Source of the DNA: Candidatus Humicultor tengchongensis
GTDB taxonomy: Bacteria > Sysuimicrobiota > Sysuimicrobiia > Sysuimicrobiales > Humicultoraceae
Length of the DNA stretch: 64,000 nt
Reading direction: 5' to 3'
Assembly (NCBI GenBank): GCA_031459715.1
Contig: JAVKIA010000001.1
Span: forward strand, 144,824 to 208,823
Shown here: positions 143 through 61,163 of the stretch, piece after piece
Layout: each line of letters opens with the position of its first letter
Numbering within the stretch: position 1 is the first letter of the stretch
Notes under the pieces: model-generated
The model's input: only the letters and a program-made list of their open reading frames with translations
Databases searched by the model: none
What the model was told of the DNA's origin: nothing
Made by a program: the position numbers and the translations under genes

Positions 143-3601
<3,459 letters not shown>

Positions 3602-16282: not shown

Positions 16283-16375
16283 CGCAGCAGGGACCCGGTG
16301 CTAGGGTAGCCGTGTCGGCGGTGCGTGCTCGGCAAGGTGGGAGGAGGTACTCCTCCGGGAGCAACCCGGCCTAAC

Positions 16376-16410
16376 TTGCGAGCCCGGCCGCCGACGCTTT
16401 TTTCTCGCGA
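16376..16410. terminator. Possible shared terminator region between convergent genes (imperfect stem enclosing a T6 run)
   Basis: 'ttgcgag...ctcgcga' inverted repeat around 'cgcttttttctc'. A separate perfect 7-bp hairpin, ggaggag-gta-ctcctcc, lies at about 16340-16356. Weak. Confidence 0.25.
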
Positions 16411-16426
16411 GTGCGGCGCGCTGCGA

Positions 16427-17707: not shown

Positions 17708-17840
17708 CGGATGTCGCAAACACACCTATCGTACGGGTGCGCAGGGGAAAGTCAACACGGCGCCCAAGAGTAATAGTACCCTTGAGCGGCCGGAGACGAC
17801 AGCACGAACAGGGAGCGGAAAGGCGAGGGGAGGGGGGCGG

Positions 17841-18710
17841 TTGCTGAAGGAGCTGCACCTGAACGCCTACGCCAAGGTGAACCTGGCTCTGGACGTGTTG
17901 GGACCCCGCGAAGACGGCTTTCACGAGATCGAGACGGTGCTGCACACCGTCGAGCTGCACGATACCATCACCCTGCGCGAACAGGAGGACGGCATCACCG
18001 TCCGCACCGACGACCCGGCGGTGCCGGACGACGCCCGGAACCTGGTGGTGCGCGCCGCGCAGGTGCTGCGGGAAACCTTCCAGGTGTCCCGCGGCGTGGA
18101 TATCGAGATCAAGAAGGGCATCCCGGTGGGTTCCGGGCTGGGCGGGGGAAGCTCGGACGCCGCCATCACCCTGCTGGGGCTCGTCCAGATGTGGAAGCTC
18201 CGGCTGAACGGACGGGGGCTGCTGTCTCTGGCCGCCACCCTGGGCTCGGACGTCCCCTTCTTCCTGGAAGGGGGAGCGGCCATCGCCCGCGGCCGGGGTG
18301 AGAGGGTCACCTGGCTGCCCCCACTGCCCACCACCTGGGTGGTGCTGGCGCGTCCACGGGTGGAGGTCTCCACCGCCTGGGCCTACCAGGTGCTGGACCT
18401 CTCCCGTGTGTGGCGCCGGCCCGACGTGGCCGCCCTGGTGGCGGCCATGCGGCGCGAGGATGTGGCCGCCGTGGGCCGGCTGATGGGGAACGTTTTCGAG
18501 GAGCTGCTGGTGCAACACCACCCGGTGGTGGGCGAGCTGAAGCAGCTGATCCTGGCGGGGGAAGCCTACGGGGCGGCACTCTCGGGCACCGGGCCCACCG
18601 TCTTTGGGCTGATGGCCAACGAAGCCGCGGCCCGTAAGACGGCCGACGATCTGCGGGCCCTGCCGGATGTGGACGTCCTGGTGAGCCGCACCTTCGCCGA
18701 GGAACGGTGA
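17841..18710 (+). CDS. ispE: 4-diphosphocytidyl-2-C-methyl-D-erythritol kinase
   Basis: 'AYAKVNLALDV', 'GIPVGSGLGGGSSDAAITL' and 'GSDVPFFL' GHMP motifs. TTG start preceded by a G-rich SD. The gene is followed by purR, as in Bacillus. Confidence 0.85.
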   Translation: MLKELHLNAYAKVNLALDVLGPREDGFHEIETVLHTVELHDTITLREQEDGITVRTDDPAVPDDARNLVVRAAQVLRETFQVSRGVDIEIKKGIPVGSGLGGGSSDAAITLLGLVQMWKLRLNGRGLLSLAATLGSDVPFFLEGGAAIARGRGERVTWLPPLPTTWVVLARPRVEVSTAWAYQVLDLSRVWRRPDVAALVAAMRREDVAAVGRLMGNVFEELLVQHHPVVGELKQLILAGEAYGAALSGTGPTVFGLMANEAAARKTADDLRALPDVDVLVSRTFAEER

Positions 18711-19459
18711 TCGACGCCCTCCTGCTTGCCGGCGGGGGCACAGCTGCTGCAGCAAACAAGGCCTTCCTGGATGTCGCGGGCCGCCCCCTGGTCTGGTACG
18801 TGGCGCGGGCGCTGGCCGAGGCTCCCTCGGTGGGCCGGATCGTGGCGGTGGGCCCGGCAGAGGACCTGCGCCGGGCCTGTGGCCCCATCCTCGCCGCCGT
18901 TGTCCCCGAAACCGGGAGCTCAGTGGTGGAGAACCTGCTGGCCGCGCTGGCGGCACTGCCGCCCGCGCCGCGGGTGCTGGCCGCGGCCGCCGACATCCCC
19001 CTGCTCAGCGCTGCGGTGGTGGAGGAGTTTCTCTCCGCCTGCGCGAAGGAGGAGGCCGACTTCTACTATCCCATCGTCCCGCAAACCGTCGTCCAGGACC
19101 GGTACCCGGGAGCTCGCAAAACCTTTGTTCGGGTGCTGGAGGGATCGTTCACCGGCGGCAGCATGTTCGTATTCAACCCGAGCGTGGTCCCGCGGGTGCG
19201 CGAGCTGCTGGATAAAATGGTGCGGGCCCGGAAGAAACCGTGGATCATGGCCGGTATCGTCGGCTGGTCCACAGTGATGAAGCTGGCCTCTGGCCGCCTG
19301 GCTATCTCAGAGGTGGAGGCCAGGCTGGGCGAGATTACGGGGCTGGTGCTGCGGGCGGTGGTGCTGCGGCGGCCGGAGCTGGCCCTGGACGTCGACCTGG
19401 AGCACCCAGAGAACCTGGAGCTGATCCGGAGGGCGCTGCAGGATTCCCCCGAGCGTTAG
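18707..19459 (+). CDS. Nucleotidyltransferase-family protein (MobA-like NTP_transf_3)
   Basis: N-terminal 'LLLAGGGTAAAANKAFLDVAGRPLVWYV' nucleotide-binding fold. ATG overlaps the ispE stop. Confidence 0.6.
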   Translation: MIDALLLAGGGTAAAANKAFLDVAGRPLVWYVARALAEAPSVGRIVAVGPAEDLRRACGPILAAVVPETGSSVVENLLAALAALPPAPRVLAAAADIPLLSAAVVEEFLSACAKEEADFYYPIVPQTVVQDRYPGARKTFVRVLEGSFTGGSMFVFNPSVVPRVRELLDKMVRARKKPWIMAGIVGWSTVMKLASGRLAISEVEARLGEITGLVLRAVVLRRPELALDVDLEHPENLELIRRALQDSPER

Positions 19460-19610
19460 GCGCATCTCCAGGGATTGGCGGGAGAAAGGCGGGCCGGGCG
19501 TGCGGGAGATGCTGGATCCGCGGGGGGTGCCGCCAGCTGCGGCAGAGGGAGGGGAACGGGCGGCGCCGGAGAGGCGACCGCGGCGGGCCAGGCTGCGGCG
19601 GGGGGAACGG

Positions 19611-20396
19611 ATGGTGGTGATCGCGCACCATCTGCTCTCTCACCCCTACCAGCTCTTTCCCCTGGCGACGTTTATGGAACTGCTGGGCGCGGCCAAGTCT
19701 ACCATCAGCGAGGATCTGGGCTTTCTACGCCAGACCTTCGACCGCTTCCGCCTGGGCAGGGTGGAGACGCTGGCCGGCGCAGCCGGCGGGGTACGCTACC
19801 TGCCCCAGATGCACCGCGAGCAGATCCGCGCCCTGGTCGAGGACCTCTGCCGCCGCCTGCGCGATCCCGCCCGGGTGCTGCCCGGAGGGTTCCTGCACGT
19901 CACCGACCTGATCAGCAGCCCGCAGTTCGCCACCCCCATCGGGCAGGCGTTCGCCACCCTGCTGGGGGGCGGGCGTCCCGACGTGGTCCTGACCATGGAG
20001 GTGAAGGGGATTCCCCTGGCGCTGGAGACCGCCCGGGCCTTCAACGTCCCCCTGGTGACCATCCGCCGCGGCGGTCGGGTGACGGAGGGGCCCGCGGTGA
20101 CGGTAAATTACGTCTCGGGCTCCTCCCGCCTGGTGGGGCAGATGACGCTGCCCCTGCGGGCCATCCCCCCCGGTGCCCGGGCGGTCTTCATTGACGACTT
20201 CCTCCGCGGCGGGGGCACGGCGCGCGGCGTGGTGGACCTGATGAAGGAATTCCGCGCCGAGCTGGTCGGGATCGGTGTCCTGGTGGAGACCGCCCTGCCC
20301 CGGGAGAAGATGGCGCAGCGCTACCTCTCGCTCATCGTGTACGAGGGGACCAGCGAGCACGGGGAGGTCCTGGTATACCCCAGCCGCCACGTCTGA
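19611..20396 (+). CDS. purR: Pur operon repressor PurR (N-terminal wHTH plus PRTase domain)
   Basis: 'IAHHLLSHPYQLFPLATFMELLGAAKSTISEDL' resembles the B. subtilis PurR N-terminus. PRTase motif 'VFIDDFLRGGGTARG'. The ATG at 19611 has an SD 'gggggaacgg'; an upstream start is possible. Confidence 0.8.
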   Translation: MVVIAHHLLSHPYQLFPLATFMELLGAAKSTISEDLGFLRQTFDRFRLGRVETLAGAAGGVRYLPQMHREQIRALVEDLCRRLRDPARVLPGGFLHVTDLISSPQFATPIGQAFATLLGGGRPDVVLTMEVKGIPLALETARAFNVPLVTIRRGGRVTEGPAVTVNYVSGSSRLVGQMTLPLRAIPPGARAVFIDDFLRGGGTARGVVDLMKEFRAELVGIGVLVETALPREKMAQRYLSLIVYEGTSEHGEVLVYPSRHV

Positions 20397-21115: not shown

Positions 21116-22287
21116 CGCGCCGCGATCTCCGGGGCGAGCCTGACCCTGGCCGCGGTACCCAGCGTGGCCAGGAGGAAGAGGAGGAAGACCGCGCTGCTGC
21201 TCAGGAACGGGGCACGGATGTCCACGGCGTAGATCATCCCCGCCCACAGCGGCCCCACGGTGCGCCCCAGGCTGTCGAAGGCCGTCTGCACGCCCATGGC
21301 CAGACCGAGCCCCTGCTCTGCCCGTTTGGACAGCAGCGAGGTGATCGCAGGTCTAATGAGCGCCAGTCCAGCCCCGATAAGCACGACGCAGGCGACGACC
21401 ACCGGTACGGAGGCGCTGGCCGCCGTGAGCGCAAAGCCGATCGCCCCCAGCACCAGGCCCGCGCAGGTGACGGCCACCTCACCCCAGTGCCGGATCAGCG
21501 GTCCCACCAGCCCGAACTGGAGGATCACCCCCGCCACCCCCAGCAGGGTGAAGGCTACGCCCACCTGTGTCGGGCTGCCTGCCAGGCGGTCGATGAAGTA
21601 GTACCCCAGCATGCTGAACATGGCCGAGCCGCCGAAGGTGGCCCCGAAGGCCAGCCAGAAGAGGATGCTGTAGGGGCTGCGTACCGCTGCCCAAACTCCG
21701 CGCCACAGCGGCCGGCGCATCCTCGTCACCCGCGATGGGGGCTCGCGCAGCAGCAGCAGGCCCACGGGCGCAGCTGCCACGCCCAGGGCGCCGGCCACCA
21801 GGAAGGGCACGGCCAGGCCCAGCGGCGCCAGCGCTCCGCCGATGGCCGGCCCAAACATGAACCCCAGGGAGAAGACGCCGCCTATGGCTCCCATGGCCGC
21901 TCCCCGGCGCTCCGGTTCTGTGAGGTCGGCGACCATGGCCTGGGAGGTGGGGAGGGCCGCGCTGGAGAGCAGGCCCCCGGCCAGACGCGCCACCAGCAGC
22001 GCCAGGTACGAGCGGGCCAGGGCCATGAGGAAGAAGGTCAGCCCGAAGCCGAGGACGCCTACCAGGAGCACCGGCTTGCGCCCCACGCGGTCAGAGACAT
22101 CGCCCCACAGCGGCGCGGTGAGGAACTGGGCCGCTGCCCACACCGTGACCAGCAGGCCCATCTGCACAGGGCTGGCGTCGACGCGGCGGGCCAGGAAGGG
22201 AAGCGTGGGGATGACGATGCCAAACCCGACCATCATGATGAACAGGGTCAGCAAGAGCAGCAGGATCTGGACGGTGGGACGGTGCAT
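21112..22287 (-). CDS. MFS transporter (DHA1-type, 12 TM)
   Basis: Internal ATG at 22287 ('MHRPTVQILLLLL...'). MFS motif 'GDVSDRVGRKPVLL'. 391 aa. Its stop shares a CTAG with the convergent SUKH gene. Confidence 0.8.
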   Translation of the reverse strand: MHRPTVQILLLLLTLFIMMVGFGIVIPTLPFLARRVDASPVQMGLLVTVWAAAQFLTAPLWGDVSDRVGRKPVLLVGVLGFGLTFFLMALARSYLALLVARLAGGLLSSAALPTSQAMVADLTEPERRGAAMGAIGGVFSLGFMFGPAIGGALAPLGLAVPFLVAGALGVAAAPVGLLLLREPPSRVTRMRRPLWRGVWAAVRSPYSILFWLAFGATFGGSAMFSMLGYYFIDRLAGSPTQVGVAFTLLGVAGVILQFGLVGPLIRHWGEVAVTCAGLVLGAIGFALTAASASVPVVVACVVLIGAGLALIRPAITSLLSKRAEQGLGLAMGVQTAFDSLGRTVGPLWAGMIYAVDIRAPFLSSSAVFLLFLLATLGTAARVRLAPEIAAR

Positions 22288-22489
22288 GCTCGGGATCCGG
22301 CGCTCACCCCTTCGGCACGCGGGGTGCCTGCTTCCTGCTTCGTGTGTCGCAGCCGTTCTCTCCCTCCGCGCTGCGCCCGATGGCGCAGGGCGCGCCAACC
22401 ATCTACAATGCGGAAGGTTCCACGCTCCGGGTGAATCCGTCGCGCCCTGCCAGGAGACCCCCGAAGGACGCGACGTTCGGAGGTTGCCC

Positions 22490-23848
22490 ATGAAGGCGCT
22501 GTTGACGAAGAGTTGTCTGCTCCTTTCCCTGGTCGTGTTCGCCTCAGCCCCTGCGCTCTGGGCGCAGACGGCGCCGCCGGCTCTTGAAGTGCGGCCCATC
22601 ACCCTGAGCCAGGCCCTGCTCACGGCACTGCAGAACAACCTGGCGCTGCGGATCGCCCTCTTCGAGGTGCAGGTCACGCAGGCGCAACTGGCGCAGGCCC
22701 TGGCGGCAAGAAGCGGCGCCCTGACCGGCACCCTGGGCTACACCCGCACTAGTGAGCGTGTCACCAGCTTCGTCATCCCGGCCAACGCCTTCGGACCGGG
22801 GCTGCCTCCTGTGGAGACGACCATCACCTTTCCGGTCTCCCCCAACGTCTACGTGGTCAACCTGGGCTACCAGTACCCCGTCTACAGCGGCGGACGGCTG
22901 GAGGCGCAGATCGCCCTGGCCCGGGCGGGGGTGAAGGGAGCGGAGGCGGCGCTGGAGCGGACCAAGCAGGAGGTAGCTTTGCAGACCAAGCTCGCCTACT
23001 TCCAGGTGCTGGTGGCGCAGGCGGGGCTGCAGGTGGCACAGCAGAACGTGGCGCAGGCGGAGGAGACCCTGCGCATCGCCCAGGCCCGCGTGCGGGCGGG
23101 GACCTCGCCCCGCTTCGACGAGATCCAGGCGGAGGTCAACCTGGCTAACGCCCGCCAGGGGCTGCTTCGTGCCCGCAACGGCGTTGCCGTGGCCACACAG
23201 GGGCTGGCCGCGATACTGGCCCTGCCGCTGGATGCGGCCCTCCACCCGCAGGAGACCATGGAGGTGGTCCCGGTGACGGCCTCGCTAGCCGACCTGGTGG
23301 CACGCGGCCTGCGGGAGCGGCCGGAGCTGGCCGAGCATCAGGCGAAGGTGGAAGCGGCGGAGGCGGCGCTGGAGCTGGCTCGGACCGGAGGGCGGCCGGT
23401 GGTGGGATTGAGCGGGGGACTCTCCCTGGACGGCCTGGGCACCGGCGCCGTGGCCCTGGGGTGGAGCATCGGTCTGGCCGCCACTTTTCCCCTCTTCGAT
23501 GGTGGCATCACCGCGGCGAAGATTCGAGAGGCCGAACTGCGACTGGAACAGCTCAAGGTGGTGGGGGCACAGCTTCGCCAGTCCATCGAGCTGCAGGTGC
23601 GGCAGGGGGTCCTCAACCTGGGAGCGGCGGCAGAGGAGGTGAGCACGGCCAGGGCTGCCATCGAGCAGGCGCGCGAGGCGCTGCGCATCGCCCAGGTCCG
23701 CTTCCGCGAGGGAGTGGGCACCAACCTGGAGGTGATCTCGGCCCAGGCCGCCCTGGCCCAGGCCGAGGGGGCGAGGGTGCAGGCGCTGTTCTCCTACAAC
23801 ACCGCCCGCGCTCAGCTGGAGCGGGCGGTGGGCGGGCCGGTGCAGTAG
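22490..23848 (+). CDS. TolC-family outer-membrane efflux protein
   Basis: Signal peptide 'MKALLTKSCLLLSLVVFASAPALWAQ', then two TolC repeats ('LSQALLTALQNNLALRIA...', 'LADLVARGLRERPELAE...'). SD ggagg 7 nt upstream. Confidence 0.8.
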   Translation: MKALLTKSCLLLSLVVFASAPALWAQTAPPALEVRPITLSQALLTALQNNLALRIALFEVQVTQAQLAQALAARSGALTGTLGYTRTSERVTSFVIPANAFGPGLPPVETTITFPVSPNVYVVNLGYQYPVYSGGRLEAQIALARAGVKGAEAALERTKQEVALQTKLAYFQVLVAQAGLQVAQQNVAQAEETLRIAQARVRAGTSPRFDEIQAEVNLANARQGLLRARNGVAVATQGLAAILALPLDAALHPQETMEVVPVTASLADLVARGLRERPELAEHQAKVEAAEAALELARTGGRPVVGLSGGLSLDGLGTGAVALGWSIGLAATFPLFDGGITAAKIREAELRLEQLKVVGAQLRQSIELQVRQGVLNLGAAAEEVSTARAAIEQAREALRIAQVRFREGVGTNLEVISAQAALAQAEGARVQALFSYNTARAQLERAVGGPVQ

Positions 23849-27204: not shown

Positions 27205-27239
27205 ATCCCATGACCCCGAACCAGGACGGTGGAAGAAGC

Positions 27240-28736
27240 ATGGCAACCACGCCGGCCGGCACACACCGTGTCGACATGGCCGTTGCCCCGCTGATTCAGG
27301 GGCTCAGAGCCGCGTCGACGGTGGGCCGGCGGGTCGCCGCGCGTCAGGGGCGTCCGGTTCTGGTCTGGACCTCGGCCGCCGTTCCGGCGGTCGATCCCAT
27401 CGCTCTCTTCGAACGCGCCGCCGGGTTCGGGGCGGCACGGCTGCTGTGGGCGCGCCCGGCCGATGGGGAGAGTCTCGTAGGGATTGGGGCGGCCTGGGAG
27501 GCCACGGCGGAAGGCCCGGCGCGGTTGGGCGCGGTGGGGGATGCATGGCGCCGCTGCCTGGCTGAGGCAGTAGGTGTAGGCGATGGAGCCGGTCCGGCGG
27601 CGATGGGCGGCTTCGCCTTCGCTCCCACCGTCGATCCCCGGTCTCCGTGGCGCACGTTCCCGGCCGGCTGGCTGCTGGTACCGTGGCTGGTGGTTCGCAC
27701 AACCGGCGCAGGCTCTCAGGCGGTGCTCAGCACGCTGGTGCCCCCCGACGGCGACGGCACTTCCCCGTACAACGATGGCAGCTCCCTGCACGACGCCACG
27801 CACCTGGCCGCGTTGCTGGATCCGCAGGACGGGCCGGGGCGTCCGCAGCCTGTGCAGCCCGCCTCCTACCGCGTGCAGAACACGGTCACGACGGCTCCGC
27901 CGGTCGCGGAAATCCCGGCGACTTCACGCTGGAAGGCGCTGGTCGTCGAGGCCGCGGCGGCCGTGCGCGGCGGCGCGCTTCGCAAGGTGGTACTTGCGCG
28001 CGCCGTGACGGTGGACGGGGTGACGACCGGCCTGGCCACGGCGCTGCACCGCCTGCGCACCGCCTACCCGGGGTGCGCGCTGTTTGCGGTGGCCCGCGGC
28101 GACCTCTGCTTCCTGGGTGCGACCCCCGAGCGCCTGTTGCGGGTGCGAAACGGTGTGGTGAGCACCGGAGCCCTGGCCGGGTCGGCTCCCCGGGGCACGG
28201 CGCCGGAAGAGGACGAGTACCTGGGCCAGGTGCTGCTCGCCAGCTCCAAAGACCGGCTGGAGCACGCGCTGGTCGTGGAAGCGGTCCGCGACGCGATGAC
28301 CGCGGCGTGTGACGACGTGGTGGCCCCGCCCACCCCGGTCCTGCTGCGCATGCCCAACGTACAGCACCTCTATACGCCGCTGCGGGGGCGCCTGCGCGCC
28401 CCGCTGGAGATCCTGGAGCTGGCCAGCCGCCTGCATCCCACCCCTGCTGTGGGCGGCGTCCCCCAGGAGGCGGCCCTGAAGTGGATCGCCCGGCACGAGG
28501 GGTTCGAGCGTGGGTGGTACGCGGGCGTCGTAGGCTGGCTGGATGGGGCCGGCGACGGCGAGCTGTCGGTGGCCATCCGGTGTGCACTGCTGCGCGGCCG
28601 GCGCGCCACGTTGTTCGCCGGGTGCGGCATCGTGGGCGACTCCGATCCGGAGGCAGAGTACGCGGAGTCATGCCTGAAGCTGCGCCCCCTGGCCGAGGCG
28701 CTGGACGCGCCCGGGGCGCTCCATGGCTGCCGCTGA
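27240..28736 (+). CDS. menF: Isochorismate synthase (menaquinone-specific)
   Basis: Chorismate-binding C-terminal domain ('LHPTPAVGGVP...WYAGVVGWLDGAGDGELSVAIRCAL...AGCGIVGDSDPEAEYAE'). The ATG at 27240 has an SD ggtgga; the alternative ATG at 27210 has no SD. Confidence 0.8.
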   Translation: MATTPAGTHRVDMAVAPLIQGLRAASTVGRRVAARQGRPVLVWTSAAVPAVDPIALFERAAGFGAARLLWARPADGESLVGIGAAWEATAEGPARLGAVGDAWRRCLAEAVGVGDGAGPAAMGGFAFAPTVDPRSPWRTFPAGWLLVPWLVVRTTGAGSQAVLSTLVPPDGDGTSPYNDGSSLHDATHLAALLDPQDGPGRPQPVQPASYRVQNTVTTAPPVAEIPATSRWKALVVEAAAAVRGGALRKVVLARAVTVDGVTTGLATALHRLRTAYPGCALFAVARGDLCFLGATPERLLRVRNGVVSTGALAGSAPRGTAPEEDEYLGQVLLASSKDRLEHALVVEAVRDAMTAACDDVVAPPTPVLLRMPNVQHLYTPLRGRLRAPLEILELASRLHPTPAVGGVPQEAALKWIARHEGFERGWYAGVVGWLDGAGDGELSVAIRCALLRGRRATLFAGCGIVGDSDPEAEYAESCLKLRPLAEALDAPGALHGCR

Positions 28737-30546
28737 GCCTGGCCGCGCACCGCTAGCGCCCGAGAACGCCACCTATGCGTTCGTCGGCGCCCTGGTCGAC
28801 GAGCTGGTCCGGGCGGGTGTGCGTCACTTCTGCCTGTGCCCGGGATCCCGCTCGACACCGCTGGCCATGACGGCAGTCCGGCAGGGGGGCCTGAAGGTCT
28901 GGATGCACGTGGACGAACGCGCGGCCGCTTACTTCGCGCTGGGCCTGGCCAAGGCCTTGCGCTCGCCAGTGGCAGTGGTATCCACCTCGGGAACCGCGGC
29001 CGCCAACTTCCTCCCGGCGGTGATCGAGGCCCGGTTCGGCCGGGTACCGCTGCTGGTGCTTACCGCGGACCGGCCGCACGAGCTACGCGACGCCGGCGCC
29101 AACCAGACCATCGATCAGCTGCGGCTCTTCGGGGTGCAGGTGAAGTGGTTCGCGGAGGTTGCCCCGCCGCTGGCTACGGAGGCGATGCTGCGGTACGCGC
29201 GCCAGCTGGCAGCCCAGGCCACCTTCCACGCGGTTGAGGCGCCCGCAGGACCCGTGCACCTCAACTTCCCCTTCCGCGAGCCGCTAGTTCCCGTACCCGC
29301 ACCCAACGAGCTGCCCCCCACGGACGATCGCGCCGGACCTGCCTGGGAGGGCCGTGCGGAGGGGCAGCCTTACACGGTCGCGCTGCACGCCGTCCGGGCC
29401 CCGGATGCGGCGGTTGCGCGGGCGCTGGCTGGCATCGTGGGCGCCGCGCGGCGCGGCCTGATCGTCTGCGGGCCGCAGGACGATCCGGCCTTCCCCCAGG
29501 CGCTGACACGGCTGGCGGATGTGGTTCGCTTCCCGGTGCTGGCCGATCCGCTGTCCGGGGTGCGGTGCGGCCCCCACGACCGCAGCCTGGTGGTGGATGC
29601 CTATGATCTCGTCCTGCGCGCCGATCGCGCTGCGGCCACCCTCGAGCCCGACCTGGTCCTGCGCTTCGGCGCCATGCCGGCGTCGCGGCCGCTGCTGCAG
29701 TACCTGCAGCGCCACAGCCGGGCGCGGCAGGTCGTGGCCGACGGTGCCCGGTGGAGCGACCCCCTGCGCGTGGCCGCGCAGATCCTGGCAGCCGACCCAC
29801 GGCTGGTGTGCGAGGCCCTGACGGCGGCGCTGGCCGGTCACCGGCCCGCGCCGGCGCAGGAGGAGTGGACCGACCGCTGGCTGGAGCTGAGCTGCTCCGC
29901 CCGCGCCGCTGCCGCCCGCCGCCTGCTGGAGATCACCGAGCCGTTTGAGGGCAGGGTGTTCGCCGAGCTGGGGGCGCTGCTGCCCGATGGTGCGCTGCTG
30001 GTGGTGGGCAACAGCATGCCGGTGCGCGACCTGGACACCTTCCTGCCGTCGGTGCCCACGCGCCTGCGCGTGCTCGGCAACCGCGGCGCCAGCGGCATCG
30101 ACGGCCTGCTCTCCACCGCCCTGGGCGCCGCTGCGGCCGCCGCCGGCCCGGTGGTGGCCGTCCTGGGCGACCTGGCGTTCTACCACGACATGAACGGCCT
30201 GCTGGCGGCCAGGCTGCACGGGCTGGCGGCCACCATCGTGCTGCTCAACAACAACGGCGGCGGGATCTTCAACTTCATGCCGCAGGCAGCGTACCCGGCC
30301 TACTTCGAGGCGCTCTTTGGGGTGCCCCACGGGCTGGAGTTCCGCCATGCGGCCGATCTGTACGGCGCCACCTACGCGGTTTTCGAAGGATGGAGCGCCT
30401 TTGGCCAACAGGTGCGCGCGGGCCTGGCCCGGTCGGGGCTGACCATCGTGGAGATTCAGACCGATCGGGGGCGCAATGTCCGTCTGCACCAGGAGATCTG
30501 GGCCAGCGCCGCCGAGGCGCTCGGCGCCGGCCTGTCCACGAGGTGA
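28723..30546 (+). CDS. menD: 2-succinyl-5-enolpyruvyl-6-hydroxy-3-cyclohexene-1-carboxylate synthase (ThDP-dependent)
   Basis: ThDP-enzyme N-terminus '[30 protein letters not shown]' and ThDP motif '[12 protein letters not shown]...NNNGGGIF'. Confidence 0.85.
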
Positions 30547-30550
30547 GAGG

Positions 30551-31369
30551 ATGCCCGTGAACTGGATGAAAGTACGTGAGTACACAGATATCGTCTACGA
30601 ACAGGCTGATGGGATGGCCAAGATCACCATCAACCGGCCTGAGGTCCGCAACGCCTTCCGCCCGCAGACCATCGTCGAGCTGATCGACGCCTTCACCCAC
30701 GCCCGCGAGGACCCAGCCGTGGGGGTCATCCTGTTCACCGGAGCGGGGACCGAGGCCTTCTGCTCGGGCGGGGACCAGCGCGTGCGCGGAGACGCCGGCT
30801 ACCTGGACGAGACGGGAATCCCACGCCTCAATGTGCTGGACCTGCAGCGGCTGCTCCGGGTGCTTCCCAAACCCGTGATCGCGCTGGTCGCGGGCTACGC
30901 CATCGGCGGCGGCAACGTGCTGGCCACCGTCTGCGACCTCACCATCGCCGCCGAGAACGCTGTTTTCGGCCAGACCGGGCCAAAGGTCGGCTCGTTCGAC
31001 GCGGGCTACGGGTCCACTTACCTGGCCCGCATCGTGGGTCACAAGAAGGCCCGGGAGATCTGGTACCTATGTCGCCAGTACACGGCGCAGCAGGCGCTGG
31101 AGATGGGGCTGGTCAACGCCGTGGTGCCGCTGGAACAGTTGGAGGAGGAGGGCATCCGGTGGGCCCGGGAAATCCTTGAGAAGAGCCCGCTGGCCATCAG
31201 GCTGCTCAAGGCGGCGTTCAACGCCGACACGGACGGACTGGCCGGCATCCAGCAGCTGGGCGGCGACGCCACGCTGCTGTACTACCTGACCGATGAGGCA
31301 AAGGAAGGGCGCGACGCCTTTCTCCAGAAGCGCCGACCCGACTTCTCCAGGTTCCCCCGCTATCCGTGA
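30551..31369 (+). CDS. menB: 1,4-dihydroxy-2-naphthoyl-CoA synthase (crotonase fold)
   Basis: '[23 protein letters not shown]', 'FCSGGDQ', '[19 protein letters not shown]' and '[14 protein letters not shown]'. Confidence 0.9.
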
Positions 31370-32280
31370 CTGCCCGCCCTTCCGTGGCTCCGGAGCGCCG
31401 GCCCGTCTCCCGCCGGCGCGCCTGGGTGCATGCGGCGCGTATCCCCACGCTGCCGGCGGCCGTGGCCCCGGTGCTGGTGGGCAGCGGCGCCGCAGCCGCT
31501 GCAGGCGGGTTTGACGCGCCGGCAGCGCTGGGGGCGCTGGTGGTGGCCCTGGCCATCCAGATCGGCACCAACCTCCACAACGATGCCGCGGACTTCCTGC
31601 GTGGCACCGACGCGACACACCGACTGGGTCCGCCCCGCGTCACCCAGGCCGGCTGGCTTGCGGCGCACGAAGTGCTGGCCGGCGCCTACGCATGTTTCGG
31701 CCTGGCGGCGCTGGTGGGGCTTCTCTTCGTCTGGCGGTGGGGGTGGCCGGTGCTGGCGGCGGGGGGACTTTCCATCCTGGCCGCCCTAGCCTACACCGCT
31801 GGGCCCTGGCCGCTCGGCTACCACGGCCTGGGCGAAGTGTTCGTCTTCCTCTTCTTCGGCGTCGTGGCCACCGCCGGAACCGCCTTCGTTCAGTTGGGAC
31901 GGATCAGCCCGGCCGCGCTGGCGGCCTCGGTCCCGGTGGGCCTGCTGTGCGCAGCGATCCTGGTCGCCAACAACCTGCGCGATGTGGCCAGCGACGCCCT
32001 GGCGGGCAAGCGCACCCTGGCGGTGCGCCTGGGTCCGGATCGGACCCGTGTGCTCTACGAGGTTTTGCTGGCCGCCGCCGTGGCCGCACCGCCGGTTCTG
32101 CGGCTGGCCGGGCTGGCCGGGCGGTGGTTCTGGCTGCCCTGGCTGGCCCTGCCCGAGTTCCTGGCGCTGGGGCACGCCGCGTGGTGGCACCATGAGGCGC
32201 CCGCGCTGGTGGCCGTCCTGAAGCGCACGGCCCGGCTGCACCTGGTTTACGGGGCGCTTTTGGGCGCCGGCCTGCTGTGA
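31366..32280 (+). CDS. menA: 1,4-dihydroxy-2-naphthoate polyprenyltransferase (UbiA family)
   Basis: About 8 TM helices with UbiA Asp-rich motifs '[12 protein letters not shown]' and 'NNLRDVASD'. Confidence 0.8.
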
Positions 32281-34508
32281 GGCAGACCGACGCGGGCCAC
32301 GCGGCCCTGCACACCCCCGACTGGCTCGCCTACCGCGCCGCCGTCTCCCCAAGCCACCTGGCGCTGGTTGCCGGCGCCGAGCGGCTGACGTTCACCGACC
32401 TCGACCGCCGGGCTGGGGCTCTGGCCCGACGCCTGAGGCATGCGGGTGTGTCAGCCGGCGACCGCGTGGCGGTCCTCCTGCGCAACGGCCCGGCCTACGT
32501 CGAGGTGACCTTCGGCCTGGCGCGCGCAGGCGCCGTGATGGTACCGCTGAACACGCGCCTGGCCCCGCCGGAGATTGCCTGGCAGCTGACGGACAGCAGC
32601 GCCCGGTGGCTGGTGTGCGAGGAGCGTACGGCCGCACAGGTACCCGGGATCTCCCCGGACCTCTGCCTGGTGGTCGTAGAGGAGCTGGCCCGGGAGCCCG
32701 AGGGCGAGGTGACGCTGGACGACCGGTGGCACCTCTCCCGCGTGCAGGGCATCGTTTACACCTCGGCCACGACGGGCCGCCCCAAGGGGGCACAGCTCAC
32801 CTTCGGCAACCACTGGTGGAATGCCGCGGGCTCGGCGTTGCTCCTGGGTGCGCACCGCGGGGACGCCTGGCTGGCGGTGCTGCCCTTCTTCCATGTCGGC
32901 GGTCTGGCTCTGCTGTGGCGCGGTGTGCTGTACGCCACTCCCCTGGTCGTGCACGATGCCTTCGACCCGGAGGCCGCCAACCGGGCCGTGGACGCAGGGG
33001 AGGTGACCCTGGTCTCGCTGGTGGCTCCCATGCTCCAGCGCATGCTGGACGCCCGCCGGGATCGGCCGTTCCCTCCGACGCTGCGCGCTGTGCTGCTGGG
33101 AGGCGGGCCGACGGGCCGCGACCTCCTCGACCGGTGCGTGGCCCTGGGCGTGCCCGCAGCCCCCACCTACGGGCTGACGGAAGCAGCCTCGCAGGTGGCG
33201 ACGCTGCCGCCGTGGGAGTTCCCGCGGAAGGTCGGTGCATCCGGCCGGCCGCTGTTCCCGGTGGAGCTGTGCATCGATGCACCGCCCGGCGAGGTGGGGG
33301 AGATCCTGGTGCGCGGCCCCACGGTCATGGCTGGCTACTGGAACCGGCCCGAGGAGACCGCGCGGGTGCTGCGCAGTGGATGGCTGCATACCGGCGATCT
33401 GGGCTACGTCGATCCCGACGGTGATCTGTTCGTCGTGGACCGCCGCGATGACCTCATCATCACCGGCGGTGAAAACGTGTACCCCTCTGAAGTGGAGGAG
33501 GCGTTGCGGGCCCACCCCGCCGTGGCCGATGCCGGTGTCTTCGGGATGCCGGACCCCCTGTGGGGCCAGGCGGTCGCCGGGGCCGTGGTCGTCCGCCCAG
33601 GGGCCAGCGTGGACGCCGCTACGCTGGAAGCGTTCTGCGCGGCACGCCTGGCCCGCTACAAGGTGCCGCGGCGCGTCTGGTTCGTCACGGAGCTCCCGCG
33701 GTCGGCCGGGGGGAAGGTGATGCGCCGCGAGCTCCAGGCGCGTTTCGTGCCTTCGGTTCCCGGAAAGCCCACCGGCCCGCGCAGCGTACCGGGCGTCGCC
33801 CTGCCGGCCGCGGTGCCGCGGTGGTGGGTGCGCGACGCCTTCCACGCCATCGCCGGACGCTACGACCTCCTCAACCACCTGCTCAGCGGCGGCCTGCACC
33901 TGGTCTGGAAGCGTGCCGCTGTGCGGGCCGCTGCTCTGGGCCCCGGCGGCCGGGCGGTGGACGTGTGCTGCGGGACGGGGGACCTGCTGGTGGGGCTTGC
34001 CCGCATCGTCGGCCCCGGCGGCCGGGTGCTCGGTGTCGACTTTGCCGCGGGCATGGTGGCCGCAGCGGCCGCCCGCCTGGCACGCCGGCGGCTGGCCGGC
34101 GCTACCGTGCTGCTGGGAGATGCCGAGGCCCTGCCGCTAGGCGACGCGACGGTGGACGCGGCGACCATCGCCTTCGGCCTGCGCAACGTGGCGGACCCTG
34201 CCCGGGCGCTGCGCGAGATGCACCGGGTGCTGCGCCCCGGAGGGCGGTTGGTGGTGCTGGAGTTCGGGCAGCCTCGCCCGTCGTGGTTCCGAGCGCTCTA
34301 CGACCTCTATTCGCGCACGGTGATCCCGCGCTGCGGCGGCTGGCTCTCCGGGCGGCACGATGCCTACCGCTACCTGCACGACTCCATCCGCCAGTGGCCC
34401 GATCCGGAGCAGCTCAGTGACCTCATCCGCGAAGCAGGGTTTGCGCAGGTGCGCTATCACCTCCTGACGCGCGGCATCTCCGTGCTGCACCTGGGCACCA
34501 AGCCCTGA
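32277..34508 (+). CDS. Fusion protein: o-succinylbenzoate-CoA ligase (MenE, aa 1-~495) plus demethylmenaquinone methyltransferase (MenG/UbiE, aa ~518-743)
   Basis: Single uninterrupted frame of 743 aa. AMP-binding motifs ('YTSATTGRPKGA', 'GWLHTGDLGY', '...GKVMRRELQARF'), a ~20-aa Pro-rich linker, then the UbiE signature 'DAFHAIAGRYDLLNHLLSGGLHLVWKR' with SAM motif 'VDVCCGTGDL' and 'LRPGGRLVVLEF'. Confidence 0.8.
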   Translation: MRQTDAGHAALHTPDWLAYRAAVSPSHLALVAGAERLTFTDLDRRAGALARRLRHAGVSAGDRVAVLLRNGPAYVEVTFGLARAGAVMVPLNTRLAPPEIAWQLTDSSARWLVCEERTAAQVPGISPDLCLVVVEELAREPEGEVTLDDRWHLSRVQGIVYTSATTGRPKGAQLTFGNHWWNAAGSALLLGAHRGDAWLAVLPFFHVGGLALLWRGVLYATPLVVHDAFDPEAANRAVDAGEVTLVSLVAPMLQRMLDARRDRPFPPTLRAVLLGGGPTGRDLLDRCVALGVPAAPTYGLTEAASQVATLPPWEFPRKVGASGRPLFPVELCIDAPPGEVGEILVRGPTVMAGYWNRPEETARVLRSGWLHTGDLGYVDPDGDLFVVDRRDDLIITGGENVYPSEVEEALRAHPAVADAGVFGMPDPLWGQAVAGAVVVRPGASVDAATLEAFCAARLARYKVPRRVWFVTELPRSAGGKVMRRELQARFVPSVPGKPTGPRSVPGVALPAAVPRWWVRDAFHAIAGRYDLLNHLLSGGLHLVWKRAAVRAAALGPGGRAVDVCCGTGDLLVGLARIVGPGGRVLGVDFAAGMVAAAAARLARRRLAGATVLLGDAEALPLGDATVDAATIAFGLRNVADPARALREMHRVLRPGGRLVVLEFGQPRPSWFRALYDLYSRTVIPRCGGWLSGRHDAYRYLHDSIRQWPDPEQLSDLIREAGFAQVRYHLLTRGISVLHLGTKP

Positions 34509-56606: not shown

Positions 56607-57860
56607 GTGGTGATCCTGGGAACGCTGGACACCAAGGGGGAGGAATGCCGGTACCTGAGGAGGGCTGTGGAGGCTCTTGGCGGCAGGACCCTGCTGCTGG
56701 ACGTGAGCTGCCTCCACGCGGCGGGCGGCTCAGACGTCGACATCTCCGCCGAGCGCGTCGCCGCTGCGGCGGGGATGTCGTTTGCCCAGGTGGCGGCCAT
56801 GCCCCGGCGCGAGGCGGTGGAGGTCATGGGGCGCGGTGCTGCTGAGATCCTTGAGCAGCTGATCCGCGAGGGGCGGGTAGCGGCCGCCATTGCGCTGGGT
56901 GGCGCCAACGGGTCGCGGCTGGCAGCCCGGGCCGTGGCGCCGCTCCCTCTGGGGATGCCCAAGGTGCTGGTGGCGGTCGTGGGAGCTACCGACCTCACCG
57001 CACTTGTCGGCCCACGGGACATAACGGTCGTGAACGCAGTCTGCGACATTTCGCTGAATCCGATCACCCGACCCATCCTCCGCCAGGCTGCCGCCGCGGT
57101 GCTGAAGATGAGCACAGTGCCCAGGGACGAGCCGGGAGCCGCGCCCACTGTGGCCATGTCGGTACTCGGCGTAACGCAGGCGGCCGCCGAGGCGTGCCGC
57201 CGCCTCCTGGAGGCTGGCGGGGAAGAAGTCGCCGCCTTCCACGCCAACGGCGTCGGTGGACGGGCCCTGGAGGCCGCGATCCTCGACGGCCGGATCGCCC
57301 GGGCGGTGGAGTTGACGCCGAGTGAGCTGATCAACCACCTCGTGGGCGGCGTCTTCTCTGCGGGGGAAGGGCGGATGGACGCCGCTATCGCGCGAGGGCT
57401 CCCCCTGGTGGTCATCCCCGGAGCCATCGACTTCGTGAACTTCTGGACCGGGCGGGTGCCGGAGCGGTTCGCCGGACGACGATTTCTCCAGTACACGGAG
57501 CAGAATGTCCTCATGCGGACCAGCAAGGAGGAGATCGGGGCCTTCGGCGTCCTGCTGGCGGCGAAGCTGAACCGGGTGCGCCGGCCGGCAGCGGTCGCCA
57601 TCCCTACACGGGGGTTCTCCCGGTTCGACCACGCGGACGGACCGGAAGCCCGCACCCTCCGAGGAGAGGCGGCGGGCCCATGGTTCGACCCGGAGGCCGA
57701 TGCCGTCTTTGGGCAGGCGCTTGAGGGCGGCCTGCGCACCGACCTGGTACGCGCGGTATTCGTACCCTACCATATCAACGATCCCGGCTTCGCGGAGGTG
57801 GTGGTGGGACTGCTGGACGAAGTTACGTTGGAATGCAAGGGACGGGCTGGGCGATGGTGA
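56607..57860 (+). CDS. UPF0261 family protein (Tm-1-like N-terminal domain)
   Basis: The N-terminus 'VVILGTLDTKGEECRYLRRAVEALGG' is the family hallmark. 417 aa. Immediately downstream of its TIM-barrel partner. Confidence 0.7.
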   Translation: MVILGTLDTKGEECRYLRRAVEALGGRTLLLDVSCLHAAGGSDVDISAERVAAAAGMSFAQVAAMPRREAVEVMGRGAAEILEQLIREGRVAAAIALGGANGSRLAARAVAPLPLGMPKVLVAVVGATDLTALVGPRDITVVNAVCDISLNPITRPILRQAAAAVLKMSTVPRDEPGAAPTVAMSVLGVTQAAAEACRRLLEAGGEEVAAFHANGVGGRALEAAILDGRIARAVELTPSELINHLVGGVFSAGEGRMDAAIARGLPLVVIPGAIDFVNFWTGRVPERFAGRRFLQYTEQNVLMRTSKEEIGAFGVLLAAKLNRVRRPAAVAIPTRGFSRFDHADGPEARTLRGEAAGPWFDPEADAVFGQALEGGLRTDLVRAVFVPYHINDPGFAEVVVGLLDEVTLECKGRAGRW

Positions 57861-58633
57861 CGCGACGAGCGCTGATCAGGCGGGCGGGCGACCGGGCGGA
57901 GCATTTCCGCCAGCAGGGTTTTCACTGTTCGGAGGCCGTCCTTCGGGGGGCGGCGGCGGCGCTGGGCCTGCGGCCGGATGAGGCCCTCCTGAGGGCCTGC
58001 ACGGGGTTGCGCGGGGGCGGCGGGGGGTACGGGGACCGCTGCGGCGCGCTAGAGGCTGGCGCGATGCTCATTGGGTGGATCTTCGGCCGCAGGCGGTCGG
58101 AGGAGGACAACTCCTGTGCCAGCGCGCTCGTGCACTGGCTGCACGAGCGGTTCGTACGGGAGCTAGGCAGCACCTCTTGCCGGGTCCTCAAGCCCCTGTC
58201 CCACGAGCAGTGGAGCAAGGACTTCTCATGCGGCCCGGTCTACCGCCGGGGCGCGGAGCTGGCCGTGCAGGCCATCCTCAGCGCCCACGAGCTCTCCCTG
58301 ACCTGCCCCCGTTTTGACCACCGCCGCCGGCGAGCACAGCGGGCACCGGTCCGGCGTGCGGAGGTCCTGGCTGCGCGGCGCCACATCAGAGCCCTGGCGC
58401 GCCGTGGAGAAATCCAGGTGGGCGCGGCGGTTCGCCACGCACAGGCACGCCTGGGGATTTCAGAAGAGGACATCTCGTACAGCTTGGCCACGGCTGTGCG
58501 TGTGCACCCGGCCGTGGGTGGACGTCTCGTGGTGGAGGGACGGCGCCGGGACCGCTGGTACCTGACGACGGTGGTGCAGCTCCGCCCATCGGGGGGCAGG
58601 CCCGATCGGGTGGAGGTGGTGGCGATCCTGTAA
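57854..58633 (+). CDS. C_GCAxxG_C_C family putative redox-active protein with an extra C-terminal ~100-aa region
   Basis: 'GFHCSEAV...ACTGLRGGGGGYGDRCGALEAGAMLIG' Cys/Gly signature. The ATG at 57854 overlaps the upstream stop (ATGGTGA). An alternative ATG lies at 57833. Confidence 0.6.
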   Translation: MVTRRALIRRAGDRAEHFRQQGFHCSEAVLRGAAAALGLRPDEALLRACTGLRGGGGGYGDRCGALEAGAMLIGWIFGRRRSEEDNSCASALVHWLHERFVRELGSTSCRVLKPLSHEQWSKDFSCGPVYRRGAELAVQAILSAHELSLTCPRFDHRRRRAQRAPVRRAEVLAARRHIRALARRGEIQVGAAVRHAQARLGISEEDISYSLATAVRVHPAVGGRLVVEGRRRDRWYLTTVVQLRPSGGRPDRVEVVAIL

Positions 58634-58692
58634 GGCGACGACGACCTGCATCGACCTAGTGCCATGGCGGCGCGGTGGAAGAGGTGGTGGGG

Positions 58693-59145
58693 GTGGGCGT
58701 CGTAGTCAGGCAGCTGGAGAACTTCTTCACCCTGGTGACCGTGGAGGGGAGCCATCACGTCCTGGTGGGGGACGAGCCCGTGCACAGTGGGGGCACCGAC
58801 AGGGGGCCCAGTCCCTTCAATCTGTTCCTGGCCGCGCTCGGGACCTGAACCGCCGTCACCCTCGTGGGCGTGGCCCGCGAATTCCAGATACCGCTGGAGG
58901 GGCTCCAGGTGCGCGTCAGCCACAAGCAGAATCTCCTCGTAGGCGGCCCCAACGACCCCCAGCAGCGACAGATGCGCATCACGGAACTCTACCGGCACAT
59001 CAGTGTCCGCGGTCCCATCACAGAGGAAGAACGGGAGCGGCTCCTGTGGGGCGCGGAGCACTGCCCCGTCCACAACTCTATCAGCGCCGCCATCCCCATC
59101 CGAACCACGATCGCCGTCTTACAGGAGGGGGCGTCCCGTGGCTAG
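58693..59145 (+). CDS. OsmC/Ohr-family peroxiredoxin-like gene with an in-frame TGA (58846-58848) at the first catalytic-Cys position: selenoprotein candidate or pseudogene
   Basis: One frame reads '...GGTDRGPSPFNLFLAALGT[TGA]TAVTLVGVAREF...LLWGAEHCPVHNSISAAIP...'. The second OsmC cysteine motif (CPxxN) is intact, and the frame stays open for 99 codons after the TGA. GTG start candidates at 58675-58693, the last with an SD 'gaggtggtgg'. Confidence 0.5.
58862..58880 (+). promoter_or_regulatory. Stable hairpin 13 nt 3' of the in-frame UGA (8-bp stem UCGUGGGC/GCCCGCGA, GUG loop): candidate bacterial SECIS-like element
   Basis: Stem arms 58862-58869 / 58873-58880, with G and U in the apical loop. 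Distance from the UGA is comparable to bacterial SECIS geometry. Confidence 0.3.
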
Positions 59146-59265
59146 GGGGGCGCCGACCGATTCGCCGTCGGCGTTCCCCCGGGCCGGCGAAGTGTTCCGG
59201 CTGCGGACGGAGCGCCTCCGGATCGGGGTCGGCTCCAGCAAGCCCCCCGTGCAGGGGTGATGTGG

Positions 59266-59979
59266 ATGAAGCGGGCGCTGGTGACGGGTGCCGGCGGGGG
59301 CATCGGGCAGGCGATCGTCCGTGCCCTTTTGGACGCCGGCTACCGGGTGATCGCCACTGACCGGGATGCGGATGCGCTCCGTTCCCTGCAGGGCGTCGTG
59401 ACTCCACAGGAGACCAGCGTGCTGGACGTGGCCGATGTTTCGTCCATCGCCGCATGCTTTGCCCGAGTAGAGCCGGTGGACGTGCTGGTAAACTGCGCCG
59501 GGGTCCAGATCCGGCGCCCCGCGCTGGAGGTAACCCCCGAGCAGTGGGACCACATTCACGCGGTGAACCTGCGCGGGCTCTTCTTCTGCTCGCAGGCCGC
59601 GGCACAGTCCATGGCCCGGCGCGGCGGAGGTGTCATTATCAACGTCGCCTCCATCCTGGGCGTCGTGGGCCGTCAGCACAATGCCGCCTACGCCGCCAGC
59701 AAAGGGGGCATCGTAGCGCTGACCCGTACCCTGGCGGTGGAGTGGGCTCCCCTGGGGATCAGGGTGAACGCCATAGCCCCGGGGCTGGTGTGGACGCCCA
59801 TGACCGCTGACCTCCGCCAGGATCCCGTGGTCTACGCTGACGTACTGCGCCGGATCCCCGTAGGCCGGTTCGCCACCCCCGAGGAGATTGCTCCGACCGT
59901 GGTCTTCCTGGCGTCCGATGACGCGCGGTATGTCACCGGGGAGGTATTCGTGGTAGACGGCGGGTACACCGCCCAGTAG
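59266..59979 (+). CDS. SDR-family oxidoreductase
   Basis: 'ALVTGAGGGIGQAI' cofactor motif and catalytic 'YAASKGGIVALTR'. The ATG at 59266 has an SD agggg; upstream GTG/ATG alternatives exist. Confidence 0.8.
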   Translation: MKRALVTGAGGGIGQAIVRALLDAGYRVIATDRDADALRSLQGVVTPQETSVLDVADVSSIAACFARVEPVDVLVNCAGVQIRRPALEVTPEQWDHIHAVNLRGLFFCSQAAAQSMARRGGGVIINVASILGVVGRQHNAAYAASKGGIVALTRTLAVEWAPLGIRVNAIAPGLVWTPMTADLRQDPVVYADVLRRIPVGRFATPEEIAPTVVFLASDDARYVTGEVFVVDGGYTAQ

Positions 59980-60125: not shown

Positions 60126-61163
60126 ATGTTCGCACAGGTGCTGCACCGCTGGGGAGGAGCGCTCTCCTATGAGGAGGTTCCGGTGCCTGTTCCGGCTCCC
60201 GGGGAGGCGCTAGTGAGGGTGGAGGCGTGCGGCGTGGGGCTGACGGTCCTGAACTACATGCGCGGTGATCTCCGGCAGCCCGGGCCGGGGCTGCCCCGCA
60301 TCCCCGGGCACGAGATCGTGGGCCGGGTAGAAGCCCTGGGCGACGGTACCACCGGGCTCGATCCTGGGGATCGAGTGATGGCCTACTTCTATCTAACATG
60401 CGGGCATTGCGATTTCTGCCGGCTGGCGCATGAGCCCCTTTGCCGCAACTTCGGGGGGTACGTGGGGGTGAACCGCGACGGCGGCTATGCGGAGTACGTG
60501 AGCCTGCCGGTGGCCAACTGGCTGCCTGTGCCCAAGGAGATCCCCGCTGTAGAGGCCACGGCGATTCCGGACGCCATCGCCACCCCCTATCACGTCTGCC
60601 GGCGGGCGGGCATTGGTACCGGCGACCTGGTCATGGTGGTAGGGGCGGGAGGCGGTGTCGGTATCCACATGGTACAGATGGTGCGGGCGTTCGGCGGCGA
60701 AGCCGTCGGTGTCGACCTGGGCGAGGCGAAGCTCCAGGCGATCCGCGCGGCCGGGGCGATGGCCGCGGTGGACTTCCGTGCCGGGGATAGGCTGGACCGA
60801 ATCCGTGCGGTCGCGCCCGCAGGGGTGACGGCAGCCATCGACTTCGTGGGGTCGCCGGAAACCCTGGCCTTCTGCCTGGAGGCGCTGGGCCGTCGCGGGC
60901 GACTGGTGCTGCTGACTACCTTTCCTGGTGTGGAGTTCCCTGTAAGCCCTCGTCAGATGGTCTTCGACGAGCTGACGGTGCTGGGCTCGCGCTACACCTC
61001 TCGCTGGGAGCTGATGCAGGCTGCGCGTCTGGTGGCGCGGGGTGCAATCAGGCCCGTGGTCTCTGAGGTGGTCCCCCTGGCTGCGGTGGAGACGCTGCAT
61101 AACAAACTCCACGAGGGAACGCTGATCGGCCGGGGGGCCGTCCGCTGCCAGCCCCCGCTGTAG
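60126..61163 (+). CDS. Zinc-dependent alcohol dehydrogenase family (MDR) oxidoreductase
   Basis: SD AAGGAGG 6 nt upstream. 'CGVGLTVLNYMRGD...GHEIVGRV', structural-Zn 'CGHCDFCRLAHEPLC' and 'VVGAGGGVGIHMVQ'. Confidence 0.8.
   Translation: MFAQVLHRWGGALSYEEVPVPVPAPGEALVRVEACGVGLTVLNYMRGDLRQPGPGLPRIPGHEIVGRVEALGDGTTGLDPGDRVMAYFYLTCGHCDFCRLAHEPLCRNFGGYVGVNRDGGYAEYVSLPVANWLPVPKEIPAVEATAIPDAIATPYHVCRRAGIGTGDLVMVVGAGGGVGIHMVQMVRAFGGEAVGVDLGEAKLQAIRAAGAMAAVDFRAGDRLDRIRAVAPAGVTAAIDFVGSPETLAFCLEALGRRGRLVLLTTFPGVEFPVSPRQMVFDELTVLGSRYTSRWELMQAARLVARGAIRPVVSEVVPLAAVETLHNKLHEGTLIGRGAVRCQPPL

Follow-up and report, generated by a model that had tools for sequence, protein, structure and literature searches.

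In the Ohr/OsmC two-cysteine reductases, the first cysteine is peroxidatic and the second is resolving. OsmC-like selenoproteins entered the literature in 2005, when Zhang, Fomenko & Gladyshev described three sequences from the Sargasso Sea under COG1765 with the motif UxxT (PMC1088965), and they are still listed in a 2026 review, under PF02566, with the same motif and MCS5647933.1 as the example (PMC13188914). A curated family model, NF041052 'OsmC-related (seleno)protein' (OsmC_like_Se), exists in NCBIfam. The original prediction for the locus described here had stated, correctly, that such proteins are on record (PMC1088965; NCBIfam NF041052), and had proposed that a further one is encoded by an OsmC-type gene interrupted by a single in-frame TGA.

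This gene lies near the end of the window, by which we mean the whole 64-kb stretch of DNA that was analysed. Positions 58675-59145 of the + strand translate in one frame, interrupted only by the TGA at 58846-58848. When this stop was read as cysteine, the 156-residue product from 58675 matched the Pfam domain OsmC (PF02566) over residues 40-144, with 57.1 bits against a gathering cut-off of 27.5. Translation and the Pfam match thus bear out that the OsmC frame is intact but for this one codon, and 98 sense codons follow it, not 99 as first counted. The start had been placed at 58675. A GTG at 58693 is probably the real start, since its product, MGVVVRQ..., fits the N-termini of the homologues ('MGVVV') and a Shine-Dalgarno-like GAGGTGG is found just 5' of it. 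In two conspecific assemblies (L021 and L022), the six codons 5' of 58693 contain a nonsynonymous change of E to Q. Counted from GTG 58693, the predicted selenocysteine (Sec) is residue 52 and the second redox cysteine is residue 124. The features of the locus are the following.

58675, + strand: alternative start codon GTG, upstream, which adds 6 residues.
58682..58689, + strand: putative Shine-Dalgarno-like sequence GAGGTGG(T), 5' of GTG 58693, from reading of the sequence.
58693..59145, + strand: predicted coding sequence of an OsmC-family selenoprotein, 150 codons plus stop, from the single frame, the Pfam OsmC match and the homologue N-termini.
58846..58848, + strand: in-frame UGA, predicted Sec codon, in the column of the first (peroxidatic) cysteine of OsmC/Ohr.
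58862..58880, + strand: predicted bacterial SECIS hairpin, with an 8-bp stem (58862-58869 / 58873-58880) and the apical loop GUG (58870-58872).
59062..59064, + strand: TGC, second (resolving) cysteine, motif HCPV in AEHCPVHNS, present as predicted and invariant in the homologue alignment; it aligns to the second cysteine of the PDB entry 9wo1.
59143..59145, + strand: terminal stop TAG, from translation.

The GenBank annotation of this locus in four conspecific MAGs contains only a 93-aa C-terminal piece (window 58864-59145 and its equivalent in L019-L022), as a 'hypothetical protein' (MDR7426176.1, MDR7464749.1, MDR7469047.1 and MDR7475624.1; locus tag QN152_00965). An exact look-up of the 93-aa piece retrieved these four NCBI MAG assemblies of the window's species, GCA_031458875.1, GCA_031459305.1, GCA_031459065.1 and GCA_031458955.1, which share 99.86-99.97% identity with the window across stretches of 9-15 kb; a search of the literature for their accessions gave no match.

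Similar fragments were encountered among the homologues. The homologue search returned 18 proteins, 12 of which were pieces of 91-97 aa corresponding to the C-terminal 60% of the query, with 65-91% identity. For the pieces whose DNA was fetched, an in-frame TGA was found in the same column in every case, with a conserved N-terminal half upstream. The remaining 6 matches were full-length proteins with 49-55% identity, and these have cysteine in the UGA column (LGNCT, VGTCT, LANCT). A metagenome scan added 10 TGA forms, compared to 2 Cys forms, among the close relatives, and cysteine was present in all the distant metagenome relatives of the 9wo1 type. Altogether, 16 distinct homologous sequences carry the TGA, and they fall into four sub-clades, LGTU, LGNU, LANU and LGHU, each followed by T. 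Cysteine occupies the column in the 6 full-length database homologues, in 5 GTDB genomes, in 2 close metagenome loci and in 2 PDB chains (9wo1 and 1vla). Both Cys columns are invariant in the homologue alignment. The alignment of orthologues therefore places the TGA at the position of the first cysteine, as had been proposed.

A profile of the C-terminal 97 positions only was run against 1.84 billion representatives (50% identity clusters). About 30 of the best 150 matches were proteins of 82-98 aa which begin 1-4 residues after the Sec/Cys column (P0020, P0022, P0023, P0027, P0032, P0033, P0036, P0037, P0039-P0041, P0043 and others). The pattern suggests that Sec forms which have escaped annotation may be common throughout this branch of the OsmC superfamily.

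Within the window, TGA terminates 31 of the 46 genes with Pfam support; it is therefore an ordinary stop codon, and the genetic code is not reassigned. A GC3/GC2 scan pointed to three more TGAs as selenoprotein candidates, at 44705, at 40033 (- strand) and at 53834. All three were rejected, as they sit at junctions of distinct adjacent genes: HMGL-like/amidohydrolase at 44705, Bmp-type binding protein/ABC ATPase at 40033, and acyl-CoA dehydrogenase/ETF beta at 53834.

Bacterial SECIS elements follow a published consensus: an apical loop of 3-9 nt on an upper stem of 4-16 bp, a G as the first or second loop nucleotide, mostly with G or U after it, a distance of 16-37 nt from the UGA to the loop, and a minimum free energy (MFE) of -7.5 kcal/mol or lower (PMC13188914). 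The GC-rich 8-bp hairpin with a GUG loop that had been predicted 13 nt after the UGA was confirmed, and with its 3-nt loop, 21 nt from UGA to loop and -13.8 kcal/mol it falls within the consensus on all four counts (loop, G, spacing and MFE). Taken alone, the window element was not significantly more stable than shuffled sequence in this DNA of 70% GC (z = -0.70), and it is the comparison with homologues alone that makes it significant. No SECIS family was matched in Rfam, either over the whole window at gathering thresholds, where the sole match was a tRNA-Met, or over 58780-58960 at E <= 10; this was expected, since bacterial SECIS elements are diverse.

The comparative data are of two kinds. 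The first concerns the pairing of the stem. Over the 16 TGA forms, 93% of the stem cells were paired, as opposed to 30-57% when the 3' arm was slid by 1-3 nt, and the stem score was matched by 3 of 500 shuffles. A compensatory change of G-C to A-U was found in 2 sequences, its 3' partner being the synonymous change CGC to CGT. Other changes keep the pairing: U-G to C-G in 3 sequences, U-G to U-A in 2 and G-C to G-U in 1. Unpaired cells were confined to the pair that closes the loop, where Ser (UCC) replaces Ala (GCC) and the loop widens to CGUGU. By itself the covariation is modest, since only one pair, in 2 sequences, is truly compensatory.

The second kind concerns synonymous sites. At the codons +5 to +8 after the UGA, the TGA forms have CTC in 15/15, GTG in 13/13, GGC in 16/16 and GTG in 16/16 sequences, and this invariance extends to lineages of 52-57% GC. 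Elsewhere in the same alignment, invariant Gly, Pro, Leu, Val and Thr residues are encoded by 3-5 codons each, the commonest accounting for 44-62%, and at the hairpin residues themselves the Cys forms use GGG/GGA/GGC/GCC and GTC/GTA/GTG. This synonymous constraint on the hairpin codons, confined to the Sec forms, is the strongest evidence for a SECIS element. At the hairpin site, 5 of 7 Cys forms reach no more than -4.8 to -6.3 kcal/mol. The other 2 (L013 and L015) can still fold there into a hairpin of -12 to -13 kcal/mol, indicating that the capacity to form the stem is due in part to the encoded LVGVAR peptide or to ancestry.

A recoding signature is therefore present at this locus, consisting of the conserved UGA, the Cys/Sec pair in one column, purifying selection on both sides of the UGA (described below) and RNA-level constraint on the hairpin, in a gene whose product belongs to the OsmC fold. 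Judged on these sequence comparisons, the gene at 58693-59145 very probably encodes an OsmC/Ohr-type selenoprotein, produced by SECIS-dependent recoding of the UGA at 58846-58848. The original reading of the codon as Sec is supported by the UGA/Cys column and its conservation, the two-sided purifying selection, the agreement with the SECIS consensus, the synonymous constraint and the pairing-preserving changes in the stem.

If the UGA is decoded, which amino acid is inserted? The same SECIS/SelB route might deliver cysteine, or a mixture of Sec and cysteine, by means of a tRNA-ReC (selC*)-type tRNA. The window's species is labelled Armatimonadota by NCBI ('Armatimonadota bacterium'). Other Armatimonadota MAGs carry canonical selC together with Sec-type hydrogenases (PMC13582414), which makes the use of Sec plausible for the phylum. 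In 5/5 Armatimonadota genomes with UXXU hydrogenases, tRNA-ReC-like tRNAs, which can decode a SECIS-linked UGA as cysteine, are present beside the canonical selC (PMC13582414), and this leaves a small chance of cysteine insertion here. A conserved UGA with a SECIS element would be equally expected in that case. However, the only tRNA found in the window by ARAGORN was tRNA-Met, and neither a tRNA-ReC-type tRNA was seen there nor a tRNA-Sec there or in the 28 fetched loci. The genes selA, selB and selD were likewise absent from the 64-kb window (Pfam annotation, about 50 genes) and from the fetched flanks. Moreover, several other lineages have Sec forms, among them the Chloroflexota (the Ardenticatenaceae genome that hosts L018) and those of metagenome contigs with 52-64% GC, and canonical Sec insertion is the default for genes of this kind. 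We therefore consider decoding as cysteine improbable, and Sec is the residue that we infer to be inserted.

A second question is whether the UGA is decoded at all. The original prediction had named a nonsense mutation, and hence a pseudogene, as the alternative to Sec. An OsmC gene could be inactivated in this way by one mutation from TGC or TGT, and the lack of Sec machinery genes in the window and the fetched flanks would be in line with it. To assess the selection acting on the gene, dN/dS was calculated by the Nei-Gojobori method for the window gene against four TGA-bearing relatives. Downstream of the UGA (88 codons) the values were 0.05-0.17, and upstream of it (50 codons) 0.01-0.20, with dS of 0.6-1.6. 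Equal purifying selection on both sides of the UGA, at dS near saturation, excludes a recent nonsense mutation. The same TGA has been kept in 16 distinct sequences with dS up to 1.6, as well as in the four conspecific MAGs, and the absence of synonymous variation in the hairpin codons is particular to the TGA forms. Additional disabling lesions in orthologues, named in advance as a sign of a pseudogene, were found neither in the window gene nor in 15/16 of the TGA-bearing relatives. The single case is L018 (Ardenticatenaceae bacterium FR_9, JAOSJS010000001.1, a 10.4-Mb contig), where a tandem 5-nt duplication (GATGA GATGA, L018:9970-9990) shifts the frame in the N-terminal third of a Sec-form OsmC; its TGA and the SECIS-like hairpin downstream are intact. 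The duplication marks either a gene that was lately inactivated or a fault in the assembly of long reads. Although one homologue, L018, is thus frameshifted, inactivation of the window gene is very unlikely, and the pseudogene alternative is rejected.

It could also be imagined that the gene is split, so that polypeptides of 51 aa and about 93 aa are made separately and reassemble, with the hairpin taking part in translational coupling. A GTG or ATG 3-6 codons past the TGA is called as a start in every homologue, and GenBank contains the corresponding 93-aa piece. Such an arrangement would nevertheless lose exactly the catalytic residue, the position and the codon of the restart differ among homologues (V+3 in some, V+6 in the window) and have no conserved Shine-Dalgarno-like sequence in front of them, and the Cys homologues are all single chains; this possibility thus seems hardly tenable. 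Finally, a sequencing or assembly miscall of TGC or TGT, which would need a single-base difference, has a negligible probability, since the TGA is identical in the four independent conspecific MAG assemblies, which excludes a base-calling error, and is found in all the Sec-form relatives.

The protein was also compared with the known OsmC families. The AlphaFold (AF2) model of the Cys homologue P0007, which is 49% identical to the window protein, has a pLDDT of 85 and matches only OsmC/Ohr structures, with a Foldseek probability of 1.0 to 1lql, 6mjn, 1nye, 4xx2 and others. In this model, a long helix (41-63) carries the first cysteine, and the second lies where the helix 125-131 starts. The Ohr/OsmC two-cysteine reductases, such as E. 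coli OsmC (1nye/1qwi) and Xylella Ohr (4xx2), share the fold and have two conserved redox residues at corresponding positions, one likewise on the long helix and the other at the N-terminal end of a helix that follows later. They differ by the low identity (12-24%) and by Sec replacing the first cysteine here. The Ohr/OsmC subfamily models TIGR03561, TIGR03562 and NF052637 matched some members of our family only weakly, with 26-33 bits against cut-offs of 86-240. The closest solved sequence is PDB 9wo1 ('Osmotically inducible protein C', 400 aa; E = 1.3e-18), in which LGACTAMTL and DKCPVH correspond to LGTUTAVTL and EHCPVH. It is a Cys form, and its OsmC domain (260-388) is fused to an N-terminal domain of about 250 residues that is absent in the window protein.

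The OsmC-like proteins of the Sargasso Sea (PMC1088965) resemble the present ones in their PF02566 domain, in having Sec in place of a redox cysteine that Cys homologues retain in that column, and in a bacterial SECIS immediately downstream with a G in a small apical loop. By motif, the two differ: the present forms read U-T-A/I/V-V-T, with Thr at +1 and +4, rather than UxxT, and the window protein, U-T-A-V-T, has Val at +3. The sources differ as well, the former being marine plankton and the latter terrestrial, hot-spring and soil-type metagenomes and a MAG labelled Armatimonadota. Among NCBIfam models, NF041052 gave the best score for each of the 14 family members tested, the window protein and 13 relatives, with an alignment over nearly its full length (profile positions 11-141 of 144). 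The scores lay below its cut-off of 95 bits: 62.8 for the window protein and 38-72 overall, with a best E-value of 2.6e-18 (about 65 bits) among the 14 family members and a best score of 71.7 bits among 10 further full-length relatives. The clade thus lies outside the curated family and is not named or read through by that rule, which presumably explains why the selenoprotein was missed in GenBank. The protein is of the same kind as the known OsmC-like selenoproteins and works like them, but falls outside the curated family model.

Based on these comparisons, the following mechanism can be proposed. During translation of the OsmC/Ohr-superfamily protein of about 150 residues, the UGA at 58846-58848 would be recoded as Sec: the mRNA hairpin 58862-58880 would recruit SelB-GTP-Sec-tRNA(Sec) to the ribosome, and Sec would be inserted instead of termination. 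On the long central helix, Sec52 would take the place of the peroxidatic cysteine, while the resolving residue would be Cys124 (HCPV). By analogy with Ohr/OsmC, the selenolate of Sec52 may attack a hydroperoxide or another oxidant, the resulting selenenic acid may form a selenenylsulfide with Cys124, and a dithiol reductant may then regenerate the enzyme. Peroxidase function is proposed here from homology, and we infer the chemistry, the substrate and the reductant in the same manner.

The surroundings of the gene, which had been described as a redox-flavoured cluster, include the following neighbours.

57833-58633: C_GCAxxG_C_C protein, upstream neighbour.
59257-59979: SDR, downstream neighbour.
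60126-61163 and 63074 onward: Zn-ADHs, downstream neighbours.

The C_GCAxxG_C_C, SDR and ADH genes are indeed present, the first upstream and the others downstream in the window's own clade, but the neighbours that are conserved across lineages are catabolic and not thiol-redox partners. In lineages ranging from 52 to 70% GC (L001, L008, L009, L027, L029, L031, L033 and L034), the Sec-OsmC gene lies between a Zn-ADH of about 344 aa and an amidohydrolase (about 452 aa) and/or an M24 creatinase-like gene, and the same loci also contain a branched-chain-type ABC transporter (ATPases), a 2-hydroxyacid dehydrogenase and an acyl-CoA dehydrogenase. The window has the same neighbour families at 42447-64000, in a rearranged order. 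This conserved synteny hints that the protein may have a pathway-specific role rather than one in general peroxide defence. It is tempting to go further and speculate that the UGA is partly read as cysteine via tRNA-ReC and SelB, with a switch between Sec and cysteine set by the selenium supply and, separately, that the mostly Sec-containing OsmC branch in the Zn-ADH/amidohydrolase/creatinase-like island serves that pathway and not general peroxide defence; we give this extended proposal only a slim chance.

Some other parts of the window are also of note. A menaquinone cluster at 27210-34508 encodes a MenF-like chorismate-binding protein, a MenD-like TPP enzyme, a MenB-like enoyl-CoA hydratase and a MenA-like UbiA prenyltransferase, and ends with one ORF of 743 aa in which an AMP-binding (MenE-like) ligase is fused to a UbiE/COQ5 methyltransferase. 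At 3068-3601 and 12988-20396, the window contains yabE-like (DUF348/G5/3D), ksgA, an ispE-like GHMP kinase and purR genes, in this order and with others in between, and a Germane (GerM) domain protein. The gene order and the GerM protein resemble a conserved Bacillota arrangement. An outer-membrane efflux protein is encoded at 21842-23848, and the MAG is labelled Armatimonadota by NCBI. The taxonomic placement of the MAG may deserve a check.

Our understanding of Sec biology is left unchanged by this case which, OsmC-like selenoproteins having been known since 2005, is solid but will not surprise a specialist. Its interest lies in a branch of OsmC proteins that is mostly Sec-containing and scores below the NCBIfam cut-off, and is for this reason systematically annotated as 'hypothetical' fragments of 51 aa and 93 aa. 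The finding can be used for the correction of annotations and in selenoproteome censuses. It also provides a clean natural case of synonymous-site constraint from a SECIS element situated in a coding region, and gives an uncultured lineage that has been little studied a well-supported selenoprotein.
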